39,945 bases of DNA, taken from Synechococcus sp. GTDB lineage: Bacteria > Cyanobacteriota > Cyanobacteriia > Thermostichales > PCC-7336. The stretch is from assembly GCA_051439605.1 (NCBI GenBank), contig JBFRWN010000042.1:1-39945 (forward strand), given 5' to 3'. Positions 1 through 39,945 of this stretch are shown in pieces. The notes beneath the pieces were generated by a model. The model was not told the origin of the DNA, searched no databases, and saw only the letters and a program-made list of their open reading frames with translations. The translations under genes were made by a program, and so were the position numbers. Numbering within the stretch: position 1 is the first letter of the stretch; every line of letters starts with the position of its first letter.

Positions 1-1593
1 CCCATTGGCAATCATCTGAATTGCTCGAGGAGCACCGGGGTCAAACCCGCCGAAATCCCACGACAGCGGATCTTTAGGATCGACCAGCGAGATGCGGTAG
101 GGGGCCAACGTGACGTAAATCGCCTTGGCATTGGGGTTCACCTTGCGACGATATGCCGCCAGCGCTTGGCTGGGGTGCCGACGACCGGCCCAAGACTCCG
201 AATCCGTCCAAAAGCAGATGACATCAGCCCAGAACTGCTTCTTAATCGCCCAATCGTAGGCCACCGAAGCATCCGTCCCGCCAAAATTATGGCGGTTTGT
301 CTTCTGCATCGCCGAGTGGAAACTATCCCGAGCCGTAATGCCCAGATCCTTGAACGTAGTGGCGAATCCGCGAATGGCGAAGTTATCCTCCGCCTTCGCC
401 GTCACCAATGCCATCACCGTGGCAATTTCGCAGCAGGTCAAGTTCACCGAGCTGACGGTGTAATAGGACATCGACCCCGATACATCCACCGCATGCAAGA
501 AGGTTTTGCCCGTAGGCTCCACTGTCTCGAAAGACAGCTCCAGAGCTTTTTCCAGAATGTCGCAAATGCGGGGGATGGGGTCCCAAGACTTTTTGCTGCG
601 ACCCACGCGCCCGCCGGAGCGGTAGGTCTTCAGCGCCTTGAGGACGTCTATGGGGTGAATGCGACCCTTGCGCAGGCGATCACGACTGGTCAGCACTGTC
701 GCCACCCGCTTCAAGTTCTTGGACTTATGCGCCCGCAACACGCCAATCTCCGTCAGAGAGCCAAGATTGCGCAACAGTGCCCCAATCGGCATGTCCTCAA
801 ACAACAACTGCCATACCCGCTCGTCCATCTTCCCGATGGGAGCCACCATTTCGTGGGTCAAGCGACCCTCGGCGATCGCCATGCAGGTGCTTTCGGGATT
901 GCGCTTCAGCCATTCGTACCACCAGATTTGCGACAGGGGGCCGGTGGGAACCTGCTTGGGCAAGTCCTCCCAGCCATGCACCACCCAGTCGTACAGCGCC
1001 TGATGCTCTGGCGTGGCAGGCTTGGCGTGGAACAATCGCAAGGCATCCCGATTCGTGAATCCGTGCCGTTGCTGGTATTTCAGCAATTGGTATGCCAACT
1101 GCTTCACATCCGGCTTAGACAGCCAGCTTTTCCCGCATTCCCGCACCACTTTGCCGAAACCGCGCAAGGATTTGGTGTAGTTCAACCATTCGTAGAAATG
1201 GCTACCGGTGCGGACGACTTTGGGGAAAATTTCCATGAATGCCCGCTTTGCAGCAGGAGAATCCCCCATCGACAGCAAGACCAGAGCGAAGAGGGGAGCG
1301 CTGTTGTTGATGGAACGGCCATCGCTAGCTGCGACAATTTCGCAAGCGGTGCGATCGGGGTCTTCGTCAACGCAGGCGAGCACTACGTCCGTGAAGTCAC
1401 CCGTCAGATCGTGCTTGTCTGCGTAGTAGGTGCTTTGGGCAGTACCGATCAGCAAGCAGCGGGTGAGCATTTTCCAACTGCCCGGATCGAACATGTAACC
1501 GCCCGATCGCCCCTGTACCATTTCGCGATCGCGCCCCGGAATGGGCTGAGACTGAGGGGTAGCGGTGGGTGAAGTGAAAAATTCGTATGTCAT
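1..1593 (-). CDS. rsr: Ro60/Rsr TROVE-domain RNA-binding protein with C-terminal vWA domain; 3'-partial, continues past the left edge
   Basis: Manual translation from ATG at 1593 (GGAGAAG upstream): MTYEFFTSPTATPQSQPIPGRDREMVQGRSGGYMFD...LTRCLLIGTAQSTYYA...VVRTGSHFYEW...RGFGKVVR...LAYQLLKYQQRHGFTNRDALRLFH...VDVSGSM...FGGTDAS...WTDSESWAG...HPSQALAAYRRKVNPNAK...GFDPGAPRAIQMIANG. These are Ro60-family motifs including a MIDAS DxSxS. The start, MIDAS and window-edge segments share one frame (531 codons). Confidence 0.95.
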   Translation of the reverse strand, partial: MTYEFFTSPTATPQSQPIPGRDREMVQGRSGGYMFDPGSWKMLTRCLLIGTAQSTYYADKHDLTGDFTDVVLACVDEDPDRTACEIVAASDGRSINNSAPLFALVLLSMGDSPAAKRAFMEIFPKVVRTGSHFYEWLNYTKSLRGFGKVVRECGKSWLSKPDVKQLAYQLLKYQQRHGFTNRDALRLFHAKPATPEHQALYDWVVHGWEDLPKQVPTGPLSQIWWYEWLKRNPESTCMAIAEGRLTHEMVAPIGKMDERVWQLLFEDMPIGALLRNLGSLTEIGVLRAHKSKNLKRVATVLTSRDRLRKGRIHPIDVLKALKTYRSGGRVGRSKKSWDPIPRICDILEKALELSFETVEPTGKTFLHAVDVSGSMSYYTVSSVNLTCCEIATVMALVTAKAEDNFAIRGFATTFKDLGITARDSFHSAMQKTNRHNFGGTDASVAYDWAIKKQFWADVICFWTDSESWAGRRHPSQALAAYRRKVNPNAKAIYVTLAPYRISLVDPKDPLSWDFGGFDPGAPRAIQMIANG

Positions 1594-1645
1594 AACGCTT
1601 CTCCGTCCCTGATGGGATATGTGAAAGGTGTCCCCAAACGGGGAA

Positions 1646-1766
1646 GGGAGACGGGCGGGATTCGAACCCGCATCTCGGCGGACAAAGGGGGGTCGTCCAT
1701 AGCGATAACCTTTGTCCTTCGGCCCTAACGGGCGATGGTGCGCTCTACCGTTGAGCTACCGACTCC
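1646..1766 (-). ncRNA. Y-RNA-like tRNA mimic, copy E1 (closest to rsr)
   Basis: Minus strand: (G)GAGTCGG TA GCTC-AACGGTA-GAGC ... GGGCCGAAG ... GGTTATCG ... GAGAT GCGGG-TTCGAAT-CCCGC CCGTCTC C. Has acceptor stem, D arm and T arm, but no 7-nt anticodon loop. Confidence 0.8.
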
Positions 1767-1785: not shown

Positions 1786-1888
1786 TGGACGGGAGGGGAC
1801 TCGAACCCCTGACCGGTAATCCTCGGTCTTCGACCCCGAAAGGTAAGGAGCGATCGAGGTACTGCTCTGCCCACTGAGCTACCCGCCC
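1786..1888 (-). ncRNA. Y-RNA-like tRNA mimic, copy E2
   Basis: GGGCGGG TA GCTC-AGTGGGCA-GAGC ... CTT ACCT-TTCG-GGGT CG AAG ... CGGTC AGGGG-TTCGAGT-CCCCT CCCGTCC A. 7-bp acceptor stem; long bulged hairpin with GTCGAAG in place of the anticodon arm. Confidence 0.85.
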
Positions 1889-1912
1889 AAGATTGTTTCG
1901 ATTGGTGTTGTC

Positions 1913-2035
1913 TGGTGGACGGAGGGGGATTTGAACCCCCATCTCCCGCTTGGAAGGCGATAACCCCGATTCGGCGACCCTTGCGGGTAAATGGGTGAAA
2001 AGGGAAAAGGTGTTCTGCCGTTAAACTATCCGCCC
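1913..2035 (-). ncRNA. Y-RNA-like tRNA mimic, copy E3, encoded CCA end
   Basis: GGGCGGA TA GTTT-AACGGCA-GAAC ... ATTT ACCC-GCAA-GGGT CGCC GAAT ... GGTTATCG ... GAGAT GGGGG-TTCAAAT-CCCCC TCCGTCC A CCA. Confidence 0.85.
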
Positions 2036-2045
2036 AAGTTGTAAC

Positions 2046-2147
2046 TGGTGGACGAGTGGGGAGTCGAACCCCGTCTTGCCATGACCGATAACCTTCACTC
2101 GGCGACCCTTGCGGGTAAGTGATGAATAAAGGGGAAGAAACTCGCCC
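2046..2147 (-). ncRNA. Y-RNA-like tRNA mimic, copy E4, D-armless, encoded CCA end
   Basis: GGGCGAG TTTCTTCCCC... CACTT ACCC-GCAA-GGGT CGCC GAGTG AA GGTTATCG ... GGGG-TTCGACT-CCCC A CTCGTCC A CCA. Acceptor stem and T arm present; no D stem recognisable. Confidence 0.8.
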
Positions 2148-2155
2148 AAGTGGTG

Positions 2156-2284
2156 TGTAGTGGAGGAGGACTCGAACCTCCAGATGACGCAGTTCCAGCG
2201 ATAACCCTCACTCTTCGACCCAATGGGTAAGGTTTGAACGAGGCAATTCGACTGCCGCCTTTACCAATTTGGCCACCCACTACA
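2156..2284 (-). ncRNA. Y-RNA-like tRNA mimic, copy E5 (first in the array)
   Basis: TGTAGTGGG TG GCC-AAATTGGTAAA-GGC G GCAGT ... CTT ACCC-ATT-GGGT CG AAG ... GGTTATCG ... ACTGC GTCATCT GGAGG-TTCGAGT-CCTCC TCCACTACA. The 5-bp anticodon-stem equivalent GCAGT/ACTGC encloses a 57-nt insert. Confidence 0.85.
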
Positions 2285-2454: not shown

Positions 2455-2472
2455 TGTTTGCGGATTCACTTA

Positions 2473-5349
2473 ATGCCAAAGCAAAGCTACGGACCATTGA
2501 CCAAAGAGCGATCGCGATTGCTCCTGTTTTCCCTGCTAGATTTCGCCAATGACAGTCTGGATACAGACGAGAGACAGCTGGATCTGCTGCGATCGCACCT
2601 ACAAACCCACTGGCAATCCTCCACCCGCCTAGTCGTTCGTACCAAACTTCGCTATCTGCAAGCCCTTTCCAAACTGGCCAGTGCGGGGGAGGGCCTCTCC
2701 CTACCCCACATCAAGGCAGCTCTCAAACATCTGGCCGAGTTTGTCGGCATTTTGGAAGACAACCGCACCGTCAAGCGGGGTTCCGACCAATGGCATTTCA
2801 CTCTGAGATGGTGGCGCGATCGCTGGGAACGGGAGGCTAATCTAGCTCACTTCGATCGCGCATGGGAAGCCAACCGACCGGATCGCGTCCAAGAGTCCTC
2901 TAACCCAGAGCAAGAGACTGAGACAGCAAGCAAAATCGGCGATCGCTGGCAACAGCTATGCAGAGAAGCCTTAGACACTCGACTGACCAGTAACCCTATG
3001 ACTGCTGGGGATGGAATGGCGTTTGAGTTGGGGGAAGTGTACGTCCCGCTGGGGGTAGCCGAGCGAAAGTCGAGATCGCAGGAGGAAGAAGACTGCGAGG
3101 CTCGGGTGTACGAACCGGCAGAGCTGCTAGATCGGCTCAAGGCATCTGAGGAACCCGTTCGGGCAGCAATTGTAGGGGAACCGGGGGCAGGGAAGACGAC
3201 TCTGTTGCAGCAGTTGGCGATCGCGCTGTTGCAGACTCCCGATGCGATGCCCATTTGGATTTCGCTGGCGGATTTGGAAGGGCAATCGTTAGAGACCTAT
3301 CTGACGCAGACTTGGCTGCGCCAAGCGCTGCGAGTTTTTCAGGTGCCGACTGAGACAGTGGAACAGTTTGCAGCTCAATTTCAGCAGGGACGCGTGTGGT
3401 TGCTATTGGATGCGGTCGATGAGTTGGGGGGAGAGGGTAGCGGTGCGATCGCGTGGCTGGCAAGGGAGTTGAAGGGCTGGCTTTCTGAGGCCCATGTGGC
3501 ACTTACCTGTCGCCTCAATATTTGGGATGCCGGAAAAAATACGCTGGCCACGTGCCAAACCTTTCGCTGCATCAGTTTTAGCGATGGGACGGGTTCGGGC
3601 AGCAATCAGGTGCAGGAGTTTATTCGGCGCTGGTTTAAAGATGATGAAGCAAGGGGGGAGAAGCTTTGTCGGCGGTTAGAGCAGCGCAGCCTGCGGCGCA
3701 TTCGAGAGCTGGTGCGCCATCCGCTATACCTGGCCCTGCTGTGCTGCACTTGGGCATCTGCAAAGGGAAAATTACCCGCGACGAAAGCAAGCTTGTACCG
3801 CCAGTTTGCGATCGCCCATTACGAGTGGAAGCAGGATTTATTTCCCACAACGTTGGTTCAGCGGCGGGAGCTCAATAAAGCGCTGTCAGAACTGGCACTA
3901 GCCGCTATGAAGCAGTCTCCCCCCAGCTTCCGCTTGCTCCGCTCCTTCATCGATCGCCAATTCCCCGATCGCCCAGAATTGCTTACTCTAGCGCTGCAAC
4001 TGGGTTGGCTGAACAAAGTAGGCTGTTCGGATGTCCATGCCGAACCGATTTACTCCTTTTATCACCCCACGTTTCAAGAGTATTTTGCCGCTCGGGCCAT
4101 CTCAACCTGGCAAGAGTTCTTTGCGCTAGAGACAGCGGCAGGAACTGTCGCCCCCATCTTCATGCCCATCTGGCACGAGACAATTTTGCTGTGGGTGGGG
4201 CGGGACGACATAGCCGCAGAAGATAAGACCGAATTCACCGATCGGCTCGTTTCTTTCAACGATTGCTGCGGCGGGCTATACAGTTACCGCACAAAGTTTC
4301 TGGCAGCTCGCGGCCTGACAGAAATGAGCGAGTATCCCGGCGCTGACGCTCTCGTGAAACACCTTATCCGGTGGCGTTTTGCGAAGCCCGATCGTGTCCC
4401 TCAACTACCCGGTCCGATCGTCGAGCAAGCGGGCATCGCCCTTTCGCGCACCGATCGGAGTTTAAGCATTCCCGCCCTAGAATCCTTTCTCCAAACCGCC
4501 AACCAACCTCTAGAAAAGTGGCTGGCGGCCCACAGCTTGGGCAAAAACTACGACCCTGGCAACCCAATTGCCATCTCCACCCTCACCCAGCTGTTGCAAC
4601 AGGAGCACCCTCCACTGTTTCGCCTCAACTTCATCCGTAGCTTAGAAGCCGTCGATCCGGGCAATCCTCTAGTGCAGGTGGGACTAATCGACATCCTCAA
4701 AACAGAAAGTAAACCCAGCATCTTGCGCAAAGCCGCCAACCGTCTAGCCAAGGTCGATCCCGACAATCCCCTCGCGCGCAATACCTTGAAGGTGTTGCTA
4801 TCCCAAACCGACGATCCCCGAGTGCGCAGCAATATCCTGACCAACCTACAACAACTTGACCATCCGCAGTCCCCAACGATCTCCAACGGAAACGCACCCA
4901 CAAAATCTGCTAAGCGCCAAAAAAACGAACCCGATCGAGATAAGCTAATTGCCAACCTATTAACCAAGTTGGACAGTAGCAACGATCTAGCCCACCGCAT
5001 CCGAGTTGCAGGAAAACTAGGCCAATGTTGTCCGGACCATCCGCAGGTCACGACTATCCTCCTGGATGTCCTCAGCACCAGTCGCAGCAAAGCCATGCTC
5101 AAGTCTGCAGTGGACCAATTGCGAGATGTAATGGAGGGCGATCGCCTGCTCGATCTCATCCCAGCCGTGCGCGATATCTACCTGAGTAATCCCGCCAAAT
5201 CGGAGCGATCGCGCCAATCCTACCGCCTCCTGTGGTACTGGTCCGCCACTATTCCCCTGCCAGATTTCCAGCGCCAATGGCAACTTCCCGTCACCAAATT
5301 CCGCAACCCCGTTCGCCCACCTGAGATCTCGAAAACCTCCCCTCCATAG
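2473..5349 (+). CDS. NACHT (STAND) NTPase with uncharacterised N-terminal domain and C-terminal HEAT-like repeats
   Basis: Walker A GEPGAGKTT, Walker B VWLLLDAVDE, HPLYLALLC, YSFYHPTFQEYFAA, and repeated 'DPGNP' helical units. ATG 2473 preferred over TTG 2458. Confidence 0.9.
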   Translation: MPKQSYGPLTKERSRLLLFSLLDFANDSLDTDERQLDLLRSHLQTHWQSSTRLVVRTKLRYLQALSKLASAGEGLSLPHIKAALKHLAEFVGILEDNRTVKRGSDQWHFTLRWWRDRWEREANLAHFDRAWEANRPDRVQESSNPEQETETASKIGDRWQQLCREALDTRLTSNPMTAGDGMAFELGEVYVPLGVAERKSRSQEEEDCEARVYEPAELLDRLKASEEPVRAAIVGEPGAGKTTLLQQLAIALLQTPDAMPIWISLADLEGQSLETYLTQTWLRQALRVFQVPTETVEQFAAQFQQGRVWLLLDAVDELGGEGSGAIAWLARELKGWLSEAHVALTCRLNIWDAGKNTLATCQTFRCISFSDGTGSGSNQVQEFIRRWFKDDEARGEKLCRRLEQRSLRRIRELVRHPLYLALLCCTWASAKGKLPATKASLYRQFAIAHYEWKQDLFPTTLVQRRELNKALSELALAAMKQSPPSFRLLRSFIDRQFPDRPELLTLALQLGWLNKVGCSDVHAEPIYSFYHPTFQEYFAARAISTWQEFFALETAAGTVAPIFMPIWHETILLWVGRDDIAAEDKTEFTDRLVSFNDCCGGLYSYRTKFLAARGLTEMSEYPGADALVKHLIRWRFAKPDRVPQLPGPIVEQAGIALSRTDRSLSIPALESFLQTANQPLEKWLAAHSLGKNYDPGNPIAISTLTQLLQQEHPPLFRLNFIRSLEAVDPGNPLVQVGLIDILKTESKPSILRKAANRLAKVDPDNPLARNTLKVLLSQTDDPRVRSNILTNLQQLDHPQSPTISNGNAPTKSAKRQKNEPDRDKLIANLLTKLDSSNDLAHRIRVAGKLGQCCPDHPQVTTILLDVLSTSRSKAMLKSAVDQLRDVMEGDRLLDLIPAVRDIYLSNPAKSERSRQSYRLLWYWSATIPLPDFQRQWQLPVTKFRNPVRPPEISKTSPP

Positions 5350-14191: not shown

Positions 14192-14929
14192 TATAATTTT
14201 GTTCATGCTAGCTATGCACGAGTGGGGCGAAGCCATTGCATTCTGGCATCTGGCAGCAACATGCTTGAATCTGCCATCGAGAGACTGGAGCTAGGTTTAA
14301 TACCGCGATGTCTTGCCCTCGGTAGGTGGGTCGAGGTTATGAAGGCCTAAGGTTATTGGGCCACCCGACTGGCCGCTGACCCAGCCGTCTGGGTCCTGGG
14401 TAAAAATCGAGGTATTTTTCGATAGGAATTTTCCTGCTCTAGATGTGAATTGGCGAGCTGGCTTGCCGATTTAGGATGCTTGTAGCATCCGTCTTCTTTT
14501 GATGTAAAGCAGCGGCAGTGGGTTCACTGTCCTTCAAAGACTGCTATTTTCTATCAGCATTGTTTGAGAAGTATCAAGCGGCTGCGGCCTCCCAGTCCCA
14601 CTGTATTAGGGGGATGAGTAATGGCCTGAAGCTTGCGGTTGGCAAGCCTCTCACCATTTATCTGCTGTTGGGAAGTGACGGAGTTCCAGGCTGACTTGTT
14701 TGTAGCACGGCCTGTATTCATTCCATCCCCAACTACTGCAATATCTGGCGCATTTAGGGGGAAGTGACGCAGAGCTTACCTATTGGCTCCAGACGAAATA
14801 CGGCATCGTTAAAGTCTGTTCGGGCCCAGCCTGCAGCCCCTTGCCACTCAGGTTGCCAGCTCATCGAATCCACATCATCCTGCCCCATTGCGGGCTACCT
14901 GCAGGTTTCCTGCAATCCTTGAGGACTCT
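14192..14929 (+). promoter_or_regulatory. Putative rne promoter (-10 TATAAT) and long structured 5' leader
   Basis: TATAAT at 14192-14197 in an 826-bp gap between the radical SAM stop and the rne ATG; hairpins such as GGATGCT-TGT-AGCATCC 14474-14490; GAGGA RBS 14921-14925. Confidence 0.5.
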
Positions 14930-16990
14930 ATGTCGAAGCAAATTATTATCGGAGAGCAGCACCGCATCGCTGCAGTATTTTCAGAAGATCGCATTCAGGA
15001 ATTAGTTGTTGCCAGCGGACACCACCAGGTTGGTGACGTTTATGTTGGGTTAGTGGAAAACGTTCTCCCCAGTATCGACGCGGCATTTATCAATATTGGT
15101 AACCCAGAAAAGAACGGGTTTATCCACGTCAGCGACCTCGGCCCCGCCCGCCTCAAGCGCAGCAGCGCCCACATTACCGAGTTAGTCACCCCCCAACAAA
15201 AGGTGTTGGTACAGGTAATGAAGGAGCCCACCGGCAATAAAGGGCCGCGTCTGACAGGCAACTTATCTTTCCCTGGCCGTTACCTCGTGCTGATGCCCTC
15301 CGGACGAGGGGTTAACTTGTCCTCTCGCATCCGCAATGAGGAAGAACGCAACCGCCTCAAGTCCCTTGCCATCCTGATAAAGCCCCCACAAATGGGACTC
15401 ATGGTTCGCACCGAAGCGGACGGAATGCCGGAAGAAAGCATCATTGAAGACCTCGAAATTCTCAAGAAGCAGTGGGAAAACATTCAGCAGGAGTACAACT
15501 CTACCCGCTCCCCCAGTCTGCTCAATCGCGATATTGACTTCATTCAACGGGTTTTGCGGGATGCGTTTAACGATAACGTCAACCGCATTGTGGTGGACTC
15601 TCAGGAGGGGGTGACCCGCGTTCGCAAGCACTTGCAAAGTTGGAATAAAGGTCGCATCCCCTCTGGTGTCGCCATCGACCTGCACAGGGAATCCACCCCC
15701 ATTTTTGACTATTACCGCGTCAACGCTGCTATTCGCGAAGCACTGCGCCCCCGAGTCGATCTGCCCTCCGGTGGATACATTATTATTGAACCCACCGAGG
15801 CGTTAACTGTGGTGGACGTCAACTCTGGTTCGTTCACGCGATCGGCCACCTCCCGCGAGACGGTGTTGTGGACCAACTGCGAGGCAGCAACAGAAATTGC
15901 CCACCAAATGCGCCTGCGCAATATTGCTGGGGTGATTGTGGTGGACTTCATCGATATGGATTCCCGCCGCGATCAGCTGCAAGTGCTAGAGCATTTCAAC
16001 AAGGCCCTGCGAACGGATAAGGCTCGCCCACAAATCGCCCAACTGTCCGAACTGGGTCTCGTGGAACTAACCCGCAAGCGCCAGGGACAGAGCCTGTACG
16101 AAGTATTCGGTCGCCCCTGTCCTACCTGCGAAGGATTGGGACTTTTGGCTCACCTTCCCGGTCAACATCCCGAACTCAATCAAACTCCCTTCGACCATTC
16201 CGTTACATATGCCTCTGCGGTTCTGGCCGCTGATGTCTCTGAGACCCCAGAAGTCACCCCCGAATCTCGCATTGGGGTGGGTGGAGAACGCAATGGGGGT
16301 TACCGCCGTCGAGGACGTTACGGCAGCAGTACCCCTAGCCGCGCTGTCGCCAGCTCATCGATCCCCGAAAATCTCTATCAGGGTCGCCGCCGCCGCACCA
16401 CTGCTGCACCCTCTACACAGCGCGTTGAGCCCCCGACAAAAATTGTTTCCGAACCCACCCCCTTAGCCTCCGACACTAGCGAAACCCCTGCAGGGCCGAC
16501 ACCACCTCCCACAAAAAAATCCCCCCGCAAGGTGATTCAGGTGGAGATGACTCCCCTACAACAGCAGGTTTACTCAGAAATGGGTATTTCACCGCTGGCC
16601 CTGCTGGATGAACCCATCAAAACGGGTCGGGACACTGTCGTAGCAGTGACCTTACCGGGCCAACCTCTAGCCGAGGTGATGGAGGCCGAAATAGACGAGG
16701 ATACTAAACCTGACGAAAGGCATGCAGAGGGGAGCGATCGCGATGCTGGGGTTCTGGATCTCAGTCAGTTGGAGCTGTCTCCAGACATTACCAAACAGGC
16801 TAACATCGACGACATTGCCGAAGAGGGAATTCCTCCAGAAGGCTTTAGTAAAGTAGAGCCACCTGAACTGAGTGCTGGGGAACAGGGTGAATTAGATGGT
16901 AGCCAAGAGGATCGTAGCGCCGACGTGAAGCCCAAGAATCAATCCCCCGCTGCCTCCCGTCGTCGCAGGTCTCGTAGCACTAGCGAGTAG
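14930..16990 (+). CDS. rne: Ribonuclease E (cyanobacterial Rne/Rng family)
   Basis: MSKQIIIGEQHRIAAVF start, S1 domain, VVDVNSGSF, DFIDM, CPTCEG zinc link, disordered C-terminal half ending in an Arg-rich RRRRSRST motif. Confidence 0.97.
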   Translation: MSKQIIIGEQHRIAAVFSEDRIQELVVASGHHQVGDVYVGLVENVLPSIDAAFINIGNPEKNGFIHVSDLGPARLKRSSAHITELVTPQQKVLVQVMKEPTGNKGPRLTGNLSFPGRYLVLMPSGRGVNLSSRIRNEEERNRLKSLAILIKPPQMGLMVRTEADGMPEESIIEDLEILKKQWENIQQEYNSTRSPSLLNRDIDFIQRVLRDAFNDNVNRIVVDSQEGVTRVRKHLQSWNKGRIPSGVAIDLHRESTPIFDYYRVNAAIREALRPRVDLPSGGYIIIEPTEALTVVDVNSGSFTRSATSRETVLWTNCEAATEIAHQMRLRNIAGVIVVDFIDMDSRRDQLQVLEHFNKALRTDKARPQIAQLSELGLVELTRKRQGQSLYEVFGRPCPTCEGLGLLAHLPGQHPELNQTPFDHSVTYASAVLAADVSETPEVTPESRIGVGGERNGGYRRRGRYGSSTPSRAVASSSIPENLYQGRRRRTTAAPSTQRVEPPTKIVSEPTPLASDTSETPAGPTPPPTKKSPRKVIQVEMTPLQQQVYSEMGISPLALLDEPIKTGRDTVVAVTLPGQPLAEVMEAEIDEDTKPDERHAEGSDRDAGVLDLSQLELSPDITKQANIDDIAEEGIPPEGFSKVEPPELSAGEQGELDGSQEDRSADVKPKNQSPAASRRRRSRSTSE

Positions 16991-37290: not shown

Positions 37291-39945
37291 TTAGAGCTTT
37301 TCTAACCGCGCCGTCAGAATTTCAGCCTGTTTTTGCAATTCTGCCAGCGATTGACGGTTTGCTTCTACTACGTCTGCCGGAGCACGGTTGACAAAATTGG
37401 GGTTATTCAGACGACCGTTAATTCCTTTCATTTCCCCTTCAATCTTGCCTAAGTCCTTACGCAGCTTGGCTTTGAGAGCCTCAATATCCACTAGCCCTGC
37501 TAGTGGCATGAGCACCTGGATGGTTCCCACCACCCCCGCTGCTACCTGCTTCAGCTCCTCCTCCAGGACCGACACAATAGTTAGGTTTTCCACCTTCGCT
37601 AGCCGCTTGATGTAATCCTGCGAACGAGTGAGTACCGCCCGTTCCGCTTCGTTTTCGCTCTGGAAAATAACGGCAATCGTTTGATTCGGCTTGATGCTGG
37701 CTTCCGCCCGCAAATTACGCACGGTGCGAATCGCATCGATCGCCAACTGGAAATCGGCCTCCAGCTGTTTGTCGATCTCCGTTGCGGTGGCAGTGGGGTA
37801 GGGCTCTACCGAGATCGAGGTTTTGGCCCCTGCCTGCGTGAGAGTTTGCCAAATTTCTTCGGTGAGGTGAGGCATCCAAGGATGCAGCATTCTCAGCATG
37901 CCTTCTAGCACTTGGGCGAGGACCTGCTGTGCCGTCAGCTTGGATTGTGCGTCGTCGCTCCAGAGGCGGGATTTAACCAGTTCGATATACCAATCGCAAA
38001 AGTCATCCCAAATAAAGCTGTAAACCACCCGGGCTCCGTCCCCCATGCCGTAGTTATCCAGCAGGCGGCTAACCTCTTGAACGGTGGAGGCATACCGAGA
38101 TAGAATCCAGCGATCGCTCAGCTCCAGTGCGTCAGGGTCGGGGGGTCCCAGCTGTTCCGGGGTCTTGCCCTCTAGATTCATGAGGACGAAGCGGGAAGCA
38201 TTCCAGATTTTGTTGGCGAAATTGCGGGCTGCTTCCACCGTGGAGGATTCGCCAGTTTTGCGATCGTAGGCCAAGCGGATATCTTGGCCGGTGCCAATCA
38301 CCTCCTTCACTAGGGCAAACCGCAAGGCATCGGTGCCGTACTTGTCCATCAGCTCAAGTGGATCGATGCCGTTCCCCTTTGACTTCGACATTTTTGAGCC
38401 GTTTTCGTCGAGTACGAGCCCATTGATATACACATCTTTGAAGGGTAGCGTGTGTGCCAACTCCGAACTCATCATCGTCATGCGGGCCACCCAGAAGAAG
38501 ATGATGTCGAAGCCAGTGGACATCAGGGTGTTGGGGAAGTAGCGATCGAAGTCTTCGGTGGTATCCGGCCAGCCCAGGGTGGAAAAGGGCCACAGACCGG
38601 AGGAGAACCAGGTGTCTAGAACATCTTCTTCTTGGACGAGTTCGACATCGGCACCGAATTTCTCTCGCGCTTTTTCTTGGGCTTCTTCCAGGTTGCGGGC
38701 AACAACGTAGTTTTGAGGGTTGTCGTCGCCTTTGACGTACCAAGCGGGAATTTGGTGGCCCCACCACAGTTGGCGAGAGACGCACCAGGGGCGCAGCTTG
38801 GCTAGCCAGCCTTCGTAGACTTTGGTCCACTTTTCGGGGATGAAGGCGGGGTCGTGCTGGGTTTGGGAGGATTCCAGGCAGGACTTGGCCATGCCGCTGA
38901 CGTCGCAGAACCACTGGATGGAGAGGAAAGGTTCGACGGGGACTTTGCCACGATCGCTGTAGGGGACGGAGTGGGTGTAGTCTTCGATTTTGTCTAGCAG
39001 GCTGTTGTCTTCGAACCACTTGACAACGGCTTTGCGGGCGTCGAAGCGATCGAGCCCCTGCATGATGCCGCCGTTCTCGTTGATGGAGCCATCCTTATTC
39101 AGGATGTTGATGAAGGGGAGGTTGTGGCGCTTGCCGATTTCGAAGTCGTTGGGGTCGTGGGCGGGGGTGATTTTGACGCAGCCCGAGCCGAATTCTGGAT
39201 CGACGTAGTCGTCTGCCACGATGGGGATGAGACGATCTTGGATGGGCAGGCGGATGTGCTTGCCGACTAGATCTTTGTAGCGATCGTCGTTGGGGTTTAT
39301 GGCGACGGCGGTGTCCCCCAGCATGGTTTCGGGGCGGGTGGTGGCGACAACGAGGTAGCGTTCCGGGTCGTCGGACAGCGGATAGCGGAAGTGCCACAAA
39401 TGGGACTGAATTTCTTTGTTTTCAACTTCGATATCCGACACCGCTGTCTGGGTGGCCGGACACCAGTTGACCAGGTACTCGCCGCGATAAATCAGTCCTT
39501 CTTCGTAGAACCGGACAAAGGCTTCGATGACTGCTTTGTTCAGCCCTTCATCCATCGTGAACCGTTCGCGGCTCCAGTCGAGGGAGAGGCCGAGACGGCG
39601 TAGCTGTCCGGTAATCGAGCCGTGGGAAAAGTGCTTCCACTCCCAGGCTTGTTTGAGGAATTCTTCGCGGCCTAAATCGAAGCGGGTTTTTCCGTCTTGA
39701 CGCAGCTTGTTCTCCAAGATGGCGTGGACGGCAATGGAGGCGTGGTCGGTGCCGGGAACCCAGAGGACGTTGTAGCCGCGCATGCGTTTGTAGCGGGTGA
39801 TGACGTCGGGCAGGGTGAAGGCGAAGGCGTGACCCATGTGCAGACTGCCGGTGACGTTGGGGGGGGGCAGTACCATGCTGAAGGCTTCGCCGGGTTGTTT
39901 GGGGTCGGCGACGTACACTCCCTTTTCTTCCCAGAATTGCTGCCA
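37291..39945 (-). CDS. valS: Valine--tRNA ligase; 5'-partial, begins beyond the right edge
   Basis: [43 protein letters not shown]-terminal coiled coil. The frame stays open to the window end ([14 protein letters not shown]). Confidence 0.98.

Follow-up and report, generated by a model that had tools for sequence, protein, structure and literature searches.

A 39,945-nt stretch of DNA from Synechococcus sp. (contig JBFRWN010000042.1 of assembly GCA_051439605.1, here called the window) carries, 54-690 nt 5' of rsr, the gene of the Ro60 orthologue, an array of five tandem tRNA-shaped units, E1 to E5, placed on the minus strand in the same orientation as rsr. In E2, E3 and E4 the acceptor stem keeps the G3.U70 pair together with A73, and similar ends recur in the rsr arrays of other cyanobacteria. 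In our judgement it is probable that E2-E4 are three of five tandem YrlA-type Y RNA genes arranged in tRNA order, whose acceptor ends are read, and most likely charged, by alanyl-tRNA synthetase (AlaRS); judging from their sequences, the RNAs that partner Ro60 may carry alanine. The original prediction, made from the letters of this stretch, had proposed that three anticodon-less RNAs carry the full AlaRS identity set, as transfer-messenger RNA (tmRNA) does, with Ro60 docked where the anticodon would be.

The minus strand was read directly and the stems were re-derived by script. E2, E3 and E4 all have G1-C72, G2-C71, G3.U70, C4-G69 and A73, and the three acceptor stems with their G3.U70/A73 set agree letter for letter with those first described; the compensatory changes reported around a retained G3.U70 are also present, with A7-U66 in E3 and A6-U67 in E4 where E2 has G-C. 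G3.U70 is the main, anticodon-independent determinant of AlaRS, and it is through this pair that acceptor minihelices and tmRNA are aminoacylated. In one pair the set departs from that of the host: pairs 1:72 and 2:71 are as in the host tRNA-Ala, and G3.U70 and A73 also stand, but pair 4:69 is C-G, whereas a GGGG start with G4-C69 is found in the two host tRNA-Ala genes and in the host tmRNA. Among the 38 host tRNAs that could be parsed (3 of the 41 records could not), the two tRNA-Ala genes alone have G3.U70. The CCA end is encoded in E3 and E4, and E2, which ends in A-ACA, would need CCA addition. Most host tRNA genes do without an encoded CCA; as we read their printed ends, it is present in only about 2 of 42 (tRNA-Ile and tRNA-Ala on contig C135), and 92 of the 265 unique Y-type elements collected from rsr loci, described below, have it.

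E2, E3 and E4 each combine an open-ended acceptor stem of 7 bp with a T arm and with a loop-closed Ro helix that replaces the anticodon stem-loop; E2 and E3 also have a D arm. In each unit the insert contains a loop-closed short helix (ACCC-GCAA-GGGU in E3 and E4), with G(N)CGAA-type and GGGUUAUCG-type sequences after it. The motif GNCGAAN0-1G has been named for the Ro60-binding module (Chen et al. 2014, PMC4201824); it is exact in E1, E2 and E5, and E3 (GCCGAAUCG) and E4 (GCCGAGUG) have near-matches, while among the 265 unique elements the exact motif is present in 92 and GNCGA in 216. The GGGUUAUCG block is common to the array units and to the published YrlA alignment, in which the Calothrix, Stanieria and Gloeocapsa entries open with the same insert sequences (supplement text 2 of PMC4201824). 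Since these sequences are common to published cyanobacterial YrlA entries, the units appear to be YrlA-family Y RNAs in tRNA order, that is, a circular permutation of the published form. The lack of an anticodon claimed for these RNAs was borne out, given that no cloverleaf with an anticodon stem-loop was found in them, and the proposed docking site for Ro60 gains from the homology of the insert to published Ro60-binding modules of YrlA, namely to their 5' strand.

Standard searches see these units in part. The Rfam tRNA model calls E1, E2 and part of E3 (41.9, 46.6 and 30.1 bits, against a gathering score of 29), each time leaving out 41-63 nt where an anticodon arm would be expected. Such hits are what one would expect of ordinary or decayed tRNA-Ala genes with an intron or insertion in the anticodon loop, an explanation that we regard as almost certainly incorrect: the anticodon stem-loop is gone, ARAGORN calls no gene in the window, neither tRNA nor tmRNA, the insert is a conserved and covarying module common to YrlA, such units accompany rsr in 87 of 89 loci, and the genome has two tRNA-Ala genes of its own. 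In addition, the known group I introns of bacterial tRNAs are far longer than the inserts of the array. The Rfam tmRNA model reaches 16.1 and 12.8 bits in the window against a threshold of 47 bits, and the true tmRNA of the host is encoded outside the array, on contig C77.

The order of the parts within a unit decides whether there is an acceptor end to charge. YrlA has been described as a circularly permuted tRNA mimic that ends in the Ro60 stem, has a loop-closed acceptor and 'lacks a free CCA end' (10.1101/312249). If that reading applied here, each RNA would run from the GNCGAA strand of one unit through its T arm and a long, closed 'acceptor' stem-loop made up of the spacer to the next unit's D arm, and there would be no free acceptor end and nothing to charge. 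The Rfam YrlA model (RF02553) matches the window in this permuted register only, along model positions 26-82 (T arm, spacer and D arm of the next unit); the 2014 alignment sets Calothrix, Stanieria and Gloeocapsa in the same way (PMC4201824), and a 161-nt metatranscriptomic contig, described further on, bridges E4 into E3, though it is uninformative on mature ends. However, the best YrlA matches, 26.3 and 23.7 bits, are far below the gathering score of 69 bits. A test that favours neither order in advance was made on the 89 rsr loci, which supplied 274 unique anchors, an anchor being a T arm that has a Y motif immediately upstream of it; we took the best complement of the 7 nt that follow the T arm in the 150 nt upstream, which belong to the same unit, and in the 150 nt downstream, which belong to the next one. 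The upstream partner was perfect for 246 anchors, with one mismatch for 20 and two for 8; in contrast, the downstream partner was perfect for 38, with one mismatch for 126, two for 99 and three for 11. The changed pairs of E3 and E4 fit within the unit only, and the 3' strand of E4 placed on the 5' strand of E3 gives an A-C mismatch. Moreover, several loci have a single called element, which is unreadable as a permuted RNA, and the encoded CCA directly follows the discriminator.

The fold itself was examined in an alignment (A2) of 26 units of one architecture that includes E3; all its members were picked for G.U and ACCA, and it is therefore a test of the fold and not of the G.U pair. The six helices given by RNAalifold are the acceptor, the D arm, the two parts of a Ro helix that a 5-nt loop closes, one extra hairpin and the T arm. 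In A2, 98.6% of the cells are paired, and both sides have changed at 15 of 33 pairs; shuffled alignments gave 6.3 +/- 1.2 such pairs, with none of 500 reaching 15, and sliding the partners gave 5 at most. The Ro helix is closed by its short loop inside each unit and its two strands covary there, which speaks against the permuted order. A covariance model built from A2 (R1) found all five units in the host genome and no further Y-type unit; it gave 18 hits at E<=0.01, five of which exceed 100 nt and lie in the array (E1, 46.6 bits; E3, 107.7; E4, 51.4; E5, 66), the other 13 being tRNA-sized. The tRNA order of the array units is thus well supported, and it is highly improbable that the permuted reading is the correct one.

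Some cyanobacterial YrlAs are said to have a 'longer' or 'much longer' acceptor stem (PMC4201824; 10.1101/312249). The published alignment runs through the Ro strand, the T arm, the 3' acceptor strand, CCA and the spacer, and then enters the next unit with its 5' acceptor strand and D arm (PMC4201824); the greater length of these stems is explained because the alignment reads across two neighbouring units. This suggests that the published gene models of cyanobacterial YrlAs were drawn in the wrong register, in which case the predicted processing sites and RNA species would change. The Chondromyces row of the same alignment looks like a tRNA-order unit that ends in G-CCA, and this order may extend beyond the cyanobacteria.

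E2, E3 and E4 are paralogues, and what they share within the window amounts to one event plus retention; the real test of G3.U70 lies for this reason in the homologues. Ro60 was found in 9 of 41 close relatives, and a first sample of 89 loci was formed by the window, its relatives and the best 80 of 372 Ro60 stretches from a species-level genome collection (a few of these loci are the same contig twice). Elements were called by a T-loop pattern with G53-C61, at most one mismatch in the T stem and in the acceptor, and exactly one Y motif per unit; the caller mis-assigns some 5' strands. Pairs were numbered from the end of the helix, and the base before an encoded CCA was taken as the discriminator. 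The caller returned 283 elements in 87 of the 89 loci, with 265 unique sequences. Among the 92 unique elements that encode CCA, pair 3 is G.U in 42, and G.U occurs at pairs 1, 2, 4, 5, 6 and 7 in 2, 1, 2, 2, 7 and 4 elements, respectively; among the 173 without CCA, it occupies pair 3 in 10. All 42 elements with both CCA and the pair-3 G.U have A as discriminator, and 38 have U at position -1, before the inferred 5' end.

These 42 elements fall into 18 distinct stem haplotypes, with compensatory changes at other pairs (for instance, C-G or U-A at pair 5), and they belong to two kinds of stem. Thirteen have 7 bp and come from the window's own genus, from metagenome-assembled genomes labelled Limnothrix and from other sources. 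The other 29 have 8 bp (G-C, U-A, G.U, G-C and so on; GUGGCGGG/UCCGCUAC-ACCA) and come from Nostoc, Calothrix, Aulosira, Trichormus, Desmonostoc, Heteroscytonema, Gloeocapsa, Aliterella, Elainella and Coleofasciculaceae records. In these longer stems the tRNA position of the G.U is 2:71, and what has stayed the same is its distance to the 3' end rather than to the T arm; this constancy fits the way in which AlaRS reads tRNA-Ala, measuring from the end.

A second sample was drawn evenly from the phylum; it overlaps the first, and so it is not independent. Ro60 was present in 42 of its 401 genomes, and 40 of the 41 loci other than the window were examined, the remaining one (G032) being L004 of the first sample. 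Elements were found in 34 of the 40 loci, 80 in all, 40 of which encode CCA; G.U is at pair 3 in 23 of these 40 elements and at any other pair in 0-4, and the class with G.U and ACCA is present in 16 of the 40 loci. G3.U70 and A73 occur without CCA in two further loci, and in one of these the stems, GGGGCAG/CUGCUCC, are of the type seen in tRNA-Ala and tmRNA. Locus L129 (G240:C227:27808-30138) has three units with GGGGCAG/CUGCUCC or GAGGCAG/CUGCUUC stems, G3.U70 and A73 and no encoded CCA, and two of the three match the GGGGC.. stem type of tRNA-Ala and tmRNA. In the six rsr loci of the phylum's other class (34-37% Ro60 identity) and in G246, no credible element was found with this caller, which rests on cyanobacterial motifs and is uninformative for those lineages.

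The original prediction had named free variation of position 3:70 among homologues as an outcome that would refute its proposal; no such free variation was seen, G.U proving to be strongly enriched there and tied to the helix end and to ACCA, but the pair is not invariant. Several observations weigh against the reading favoured here. In the stem family, defined by the first five 5' bases with G or A allowed at the third (57 elements in 35 loci), pair 3 is G.U in 44 elements, A-U in 7 and G-C in 6, and 7 of the 35 loci keep no G.U copy with CCA. The class with G.U and ACCA is found in just 29 of the 89 loci (and in the 16 of 40 given above for the even sample), and it is not a general property of rsr arrays. 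Within the window, E2 lacks an encoded CCA, E3 and E4 lack the exact GNCGAAN0-1G motif, and pair 4:69 departs from that of tRNA-Ala and tmRNA in the host; at pair 2 the 8-bp forms carry U-A where G-C would be expected, and the mature ends of these forms are an assumption. Because the elements share ancestry, the counts do not represent independent events; they were also obtained with a caller that demands its own acceptor pairing, T-loop pattern and single Y motif. Finally, the analogy with tmRNA is confined to the acceptor end.

Part of this evidence would suit a different explanation, in which the marks serve tRNA-like maturation or stability, or are a relic of tRNA-Ala, with the G.U either left over from that ancestor or of use to a processing enzyme, and the RNAs are cut by RNase P and carry CCA but are not charged by AlaRS in the cell. 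E2 is the unit most like a host tRNA, its nearest one being tRNA-Ala(UGC) (score of 33, against 29 for the next), although this closeness fits either descent from tRNA-Ala or convergence. The replacement of the G.U in 13 of the 57 stem-family members and the absence of the class from many loci are in line with a relic, and G.U is also common at the innermost pair (28 of the 173 elements without CCA; 6 of 18 haplotypes with 8-bp stems). Nevertheless, a neutral G.U should decay, and the other interior pairs are G.U in only 1-7 of the 92 elements; in stems of eight pairs the G.U tracks the end of the helix, as expected for a reader that measures from the 3' end; and the A discriminator is linked to it without exception. 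To our knowledge, no processing enzyme requires G3.U70. On balance, we consider maturation or descent alone a rather unlikely account of these marks.

A further alternative retains the AlaRS system and dispenses with charging: the end would act as a decoy that binds AlaRS, or an editing factor of the AlaX or DTD type, in order to tether it to Ro60 or to titrate it. The conservation of G.U speaks for it as much as for charging, Y RNAs are described as tethers, for instance of PNPase in Deinococcus, and the host has one full AlaRS and one AlaX-like frame. However, an encoded free ACCA suits a chargeable substrate and a pure binding decoy needs none, and the AlaRS and AlaX-like genes are on other contigs, with no linkage to the array seen in the host genome. 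This alternative seems distinctly unlikely.

If the acceptor ends of E2-E4 are indeed read by AlaRS, the following sequence of events can be proposed. The array would be transcribed, probably together with rsr, given that a promoter/terminator scan of positions 1500-2600 showed no terminator-like site on the array strand; no promoter-like site was seen in that scan either, and the array promoter is thus unlocated, while its sole terminator-like site is on the plus strand, within the neighbouring gene. The units would then be released by RNase P at the 5' end and by trimming or CCA addition at the 3' end, for which there is a precedent in the YrlA of Mycobacterium smegmatis, which in vivo is cleaved by RNase P and acquires CCA (PMC4201824). 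The hairpin would be bound by Ro60, and the acceptor ends, with G3.U70, A73 and CCA, would be read and most likely charged by AlaRS; since this enzyme needs no anticodon, as minihelices and tmRNA illustrate, such ends are expected to be recognised and probably aminoacylated. A charged end might protect the 3' end, a role suggested by the authors of the 2014 study (PMC4201824), and might couple the Ro60 particle to the tRNA-handling machinery; alternatively, it might report the charging state. As for ribosome rescue, a decoy for nucleases or alanine donation, which had been put forward as functions, nothing in the analysis specifically favours any of them.

The arrays also contain other tRNA-like classes. 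A G at position -1 opposite C73, which gives an 8-bp acceptor helix, was observed in 134 of the 265 elements, about half, including E1 and E5; neither of these two units has the alanine set. In the elements that combine C73 with CCA, the G(-1):C73 pair is directly followed by CCA in 10 of 10, and none has G.U at pair 3. The G(-1):C73 pair is a mark of histidine identity. The class proximal to rsr, to which E1 belongs and which adjoins rsr in most loci, combines G(-1):C73 with a CCUU(U/C) tail that is conserved and lacks CCA. Among the units of L005, L006, L008, L018, L040, L041 and other loci, some have class II type D arms (UGGCGGA.. or UGGCCAA..) and some a long extra arm ahead of the T arm, and the host tRNA nearest to E5 is tRNA-Leu; because of these features, the arrays seem to mix mimics of several tRNA types. 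Taken further, one may tentatively picture cyanobacterial Ro60 particles built on aminoacylated Y RNAs that mimic several anticodon-independent tRNA identities, namely Ala (pair-3 G.U with A-CCA), His-like (G(-1):C73 with CCA) and Leu/Ser-like class II (units such as E5), through which charging, EF-Tu or the ribosome would be coupled to RNA surveillance by Ro60; we hold this broader picture to be possible, but doubtful. A further conserved unit is found just downstream of rsr in Nostoc-type loci, about 1650-1760 nt past the rsr start (L017, L019, L020, L027, L032 and about 30 more); it has GGCGGGU.../ACCCGCC strands and no D arm, measures about 105-110 nt, and its stem is followed by T or G. 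No such unit could be seen in the window, where the rsr frame continues past the contig start.

The coordinates of the array and of rsr are given in Table 1.

Table 1. Units of the array, spacer and rsr, in positions of the window
Feature	Position	Strand	Description
rsr (Ro60 orthologue)	1..1593	minus	ATG at 1593-1591; frame runs off the start of the window and contig
Spacer, E1 to rsr	1594..1646	minus	small hairpin CCCC-GUUU-GGGG; GGAG ahead of the ATG
E1, rsr-proximal tRNA-shaped Y RNA	1647..1766	minus	stem GAGUCGG/CCGUCUC with U4-U69 mismatch; G(-1) at 1766 opposite C73 at 1647; tail CUUCC, no CCA encoded
E2	1786..1888	minus	acceptor GGGCGGG/CCCGUCC; A73 at 1786, tail ACAC; D arm; predicted Ro hairpin and variable region ~1863-1811; T arm from 1810; orthologues in L002, L003 and L011 end in ACCA
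E3	1913..2035	minus	acceptor GGGCGGA/UCCGUCC; A73 at 1916; CCA encoded at 1915-1913; D arm GUUU/GAAC; predicted Ro hairpin and extra hairpin ~2011-1941
E4	2046..2147	minus	acceptor GGGCGAG/CUCGUCC; A73 at 2049; CCA encoded at 2048-2046; no D arm, as in orthologues in L002, L011 and L014; predicted Ro hairpin (ACCC-GCAA-GGGU...) within 2140-2074; T arm starts at ~2073
E5, distal	2157..2283	minus	stem UAGUGGG/UCCACUA, of 8 pairs when G(-1) at 2283, which faces C73 at 2157, is counted; pair 3 from the end A-U; class II type D arm; tail ACACCA

The open reading frame that reads as rsr matches Pfam vWA_Ro60 (1.1e-36) and TROVE (8.2e-18), and its product shares 66-84% identity with those of the relatives across residues 1-531. 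Divergent from the array is a gene for a STAND NTPase of 963 aa (2458-5349, plus strand) with EAD4, NACHT and HEAT repeats, and a perfect palindrome (AAGUUGGGGGUACCCCCAACUU, at about 2424-2449) lies between E5 and this gene. An RNase E/G family protein (14888-16990, plus strand) and an enzyme of the valyl-tRNA synthetase type (37291-39918, minus strand) are also encoded in the window, with no evident link to the array seen. A 161-nt contig from a marine-sediment metatranscriptome run (X1) matches positions 1996-2150, which comprise E4 and about 40 nt at the start of E3, and differs there by a single base change and a 1-nt gap; 0.10 of the sampled words are present in the run. The contig represents the array of a close relative in that library, which may contain DNA; the assembled contigs of X1 show neither ends, strand nor level, and they were not used as evidence.

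Compared with known systems, the array units resemble the YrlA Y RNAs (RF02553; PMC4201824; 10.1101/312249) in their location beside rsr, their tRNA-like D and T arms, their stem of the acceptor type, and the GNCGAA and GGUUAUC sequences of a Ro60 module that extends from the position of the anticodon stem. They differ from YrlA as described in these sources in that the Ro stem is loop-closed and the acceptor open, often with an encoded CCA, whereas YrlA ends in the Ro60 stem and its acceptor is closed. The YrlA of M. smegmatis (Chen et al. 2014) has, like the array units, a 7-bp acceptor stem, which is opened by RNase P in vivo and then receives CCA; nonetheless, it is made as a permuted transcript that yields two base-paired halves, while in the array the free end is built into the order of the gene, and its acceptor has, by our own reading of the published alignment, G3-C70 where E2-E4 have G3.U70. 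In that paper, aminoacylation of the M. smegmatis RNA is raised only as a possibility (PMC4201824). With tRNA-Ala, E2-E4 share G1-C72, G2-C71, G3.U70, A73, the T arm and, in E2 and E3, the D arm, with CCA encoded in E3 and E4; in contrast, tRNA-Ala has an anticodon arm and G4-C69, and E2-E4 have C4-G69 and a predicted Ro60-binding hairpin, with no D arm in E4.

The tRNA-like domain of tmRNA is the other close parallel, given that it has an acceptor stem and a T arm with G3.U70 and ACCA, no anticodon, and is charged by AlaRS; tmRNA also lacks a D stem, as E4 does. The likeness to tmRNA holds at this end and fails elsewhere, since the array has neither an mRNA-like reading frame nor pseudoknots, and nothing ties its RNAs to SmpB. 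In a literature search that covered papers readable without subscription, no paper was found that links U70 or AlaRS with bacterial Y RNAs, nor one that names six cyanobacterial rsr locus tags.

The tRNA mimics described so far among bacterial Y RNAs are without a free acceptor end; here, a large group of cyanobacteria keeps a free tRNA end in these RNAs, and in a major class of the RNAs the one base pair required by AlaRS is retained, its spacing from the 3' end being constant. The purpose of the tRNA-like part of Y RNAs becomes in this way a direct question, namely, whether the RNAs bound by Ro60 are charged with alanine.

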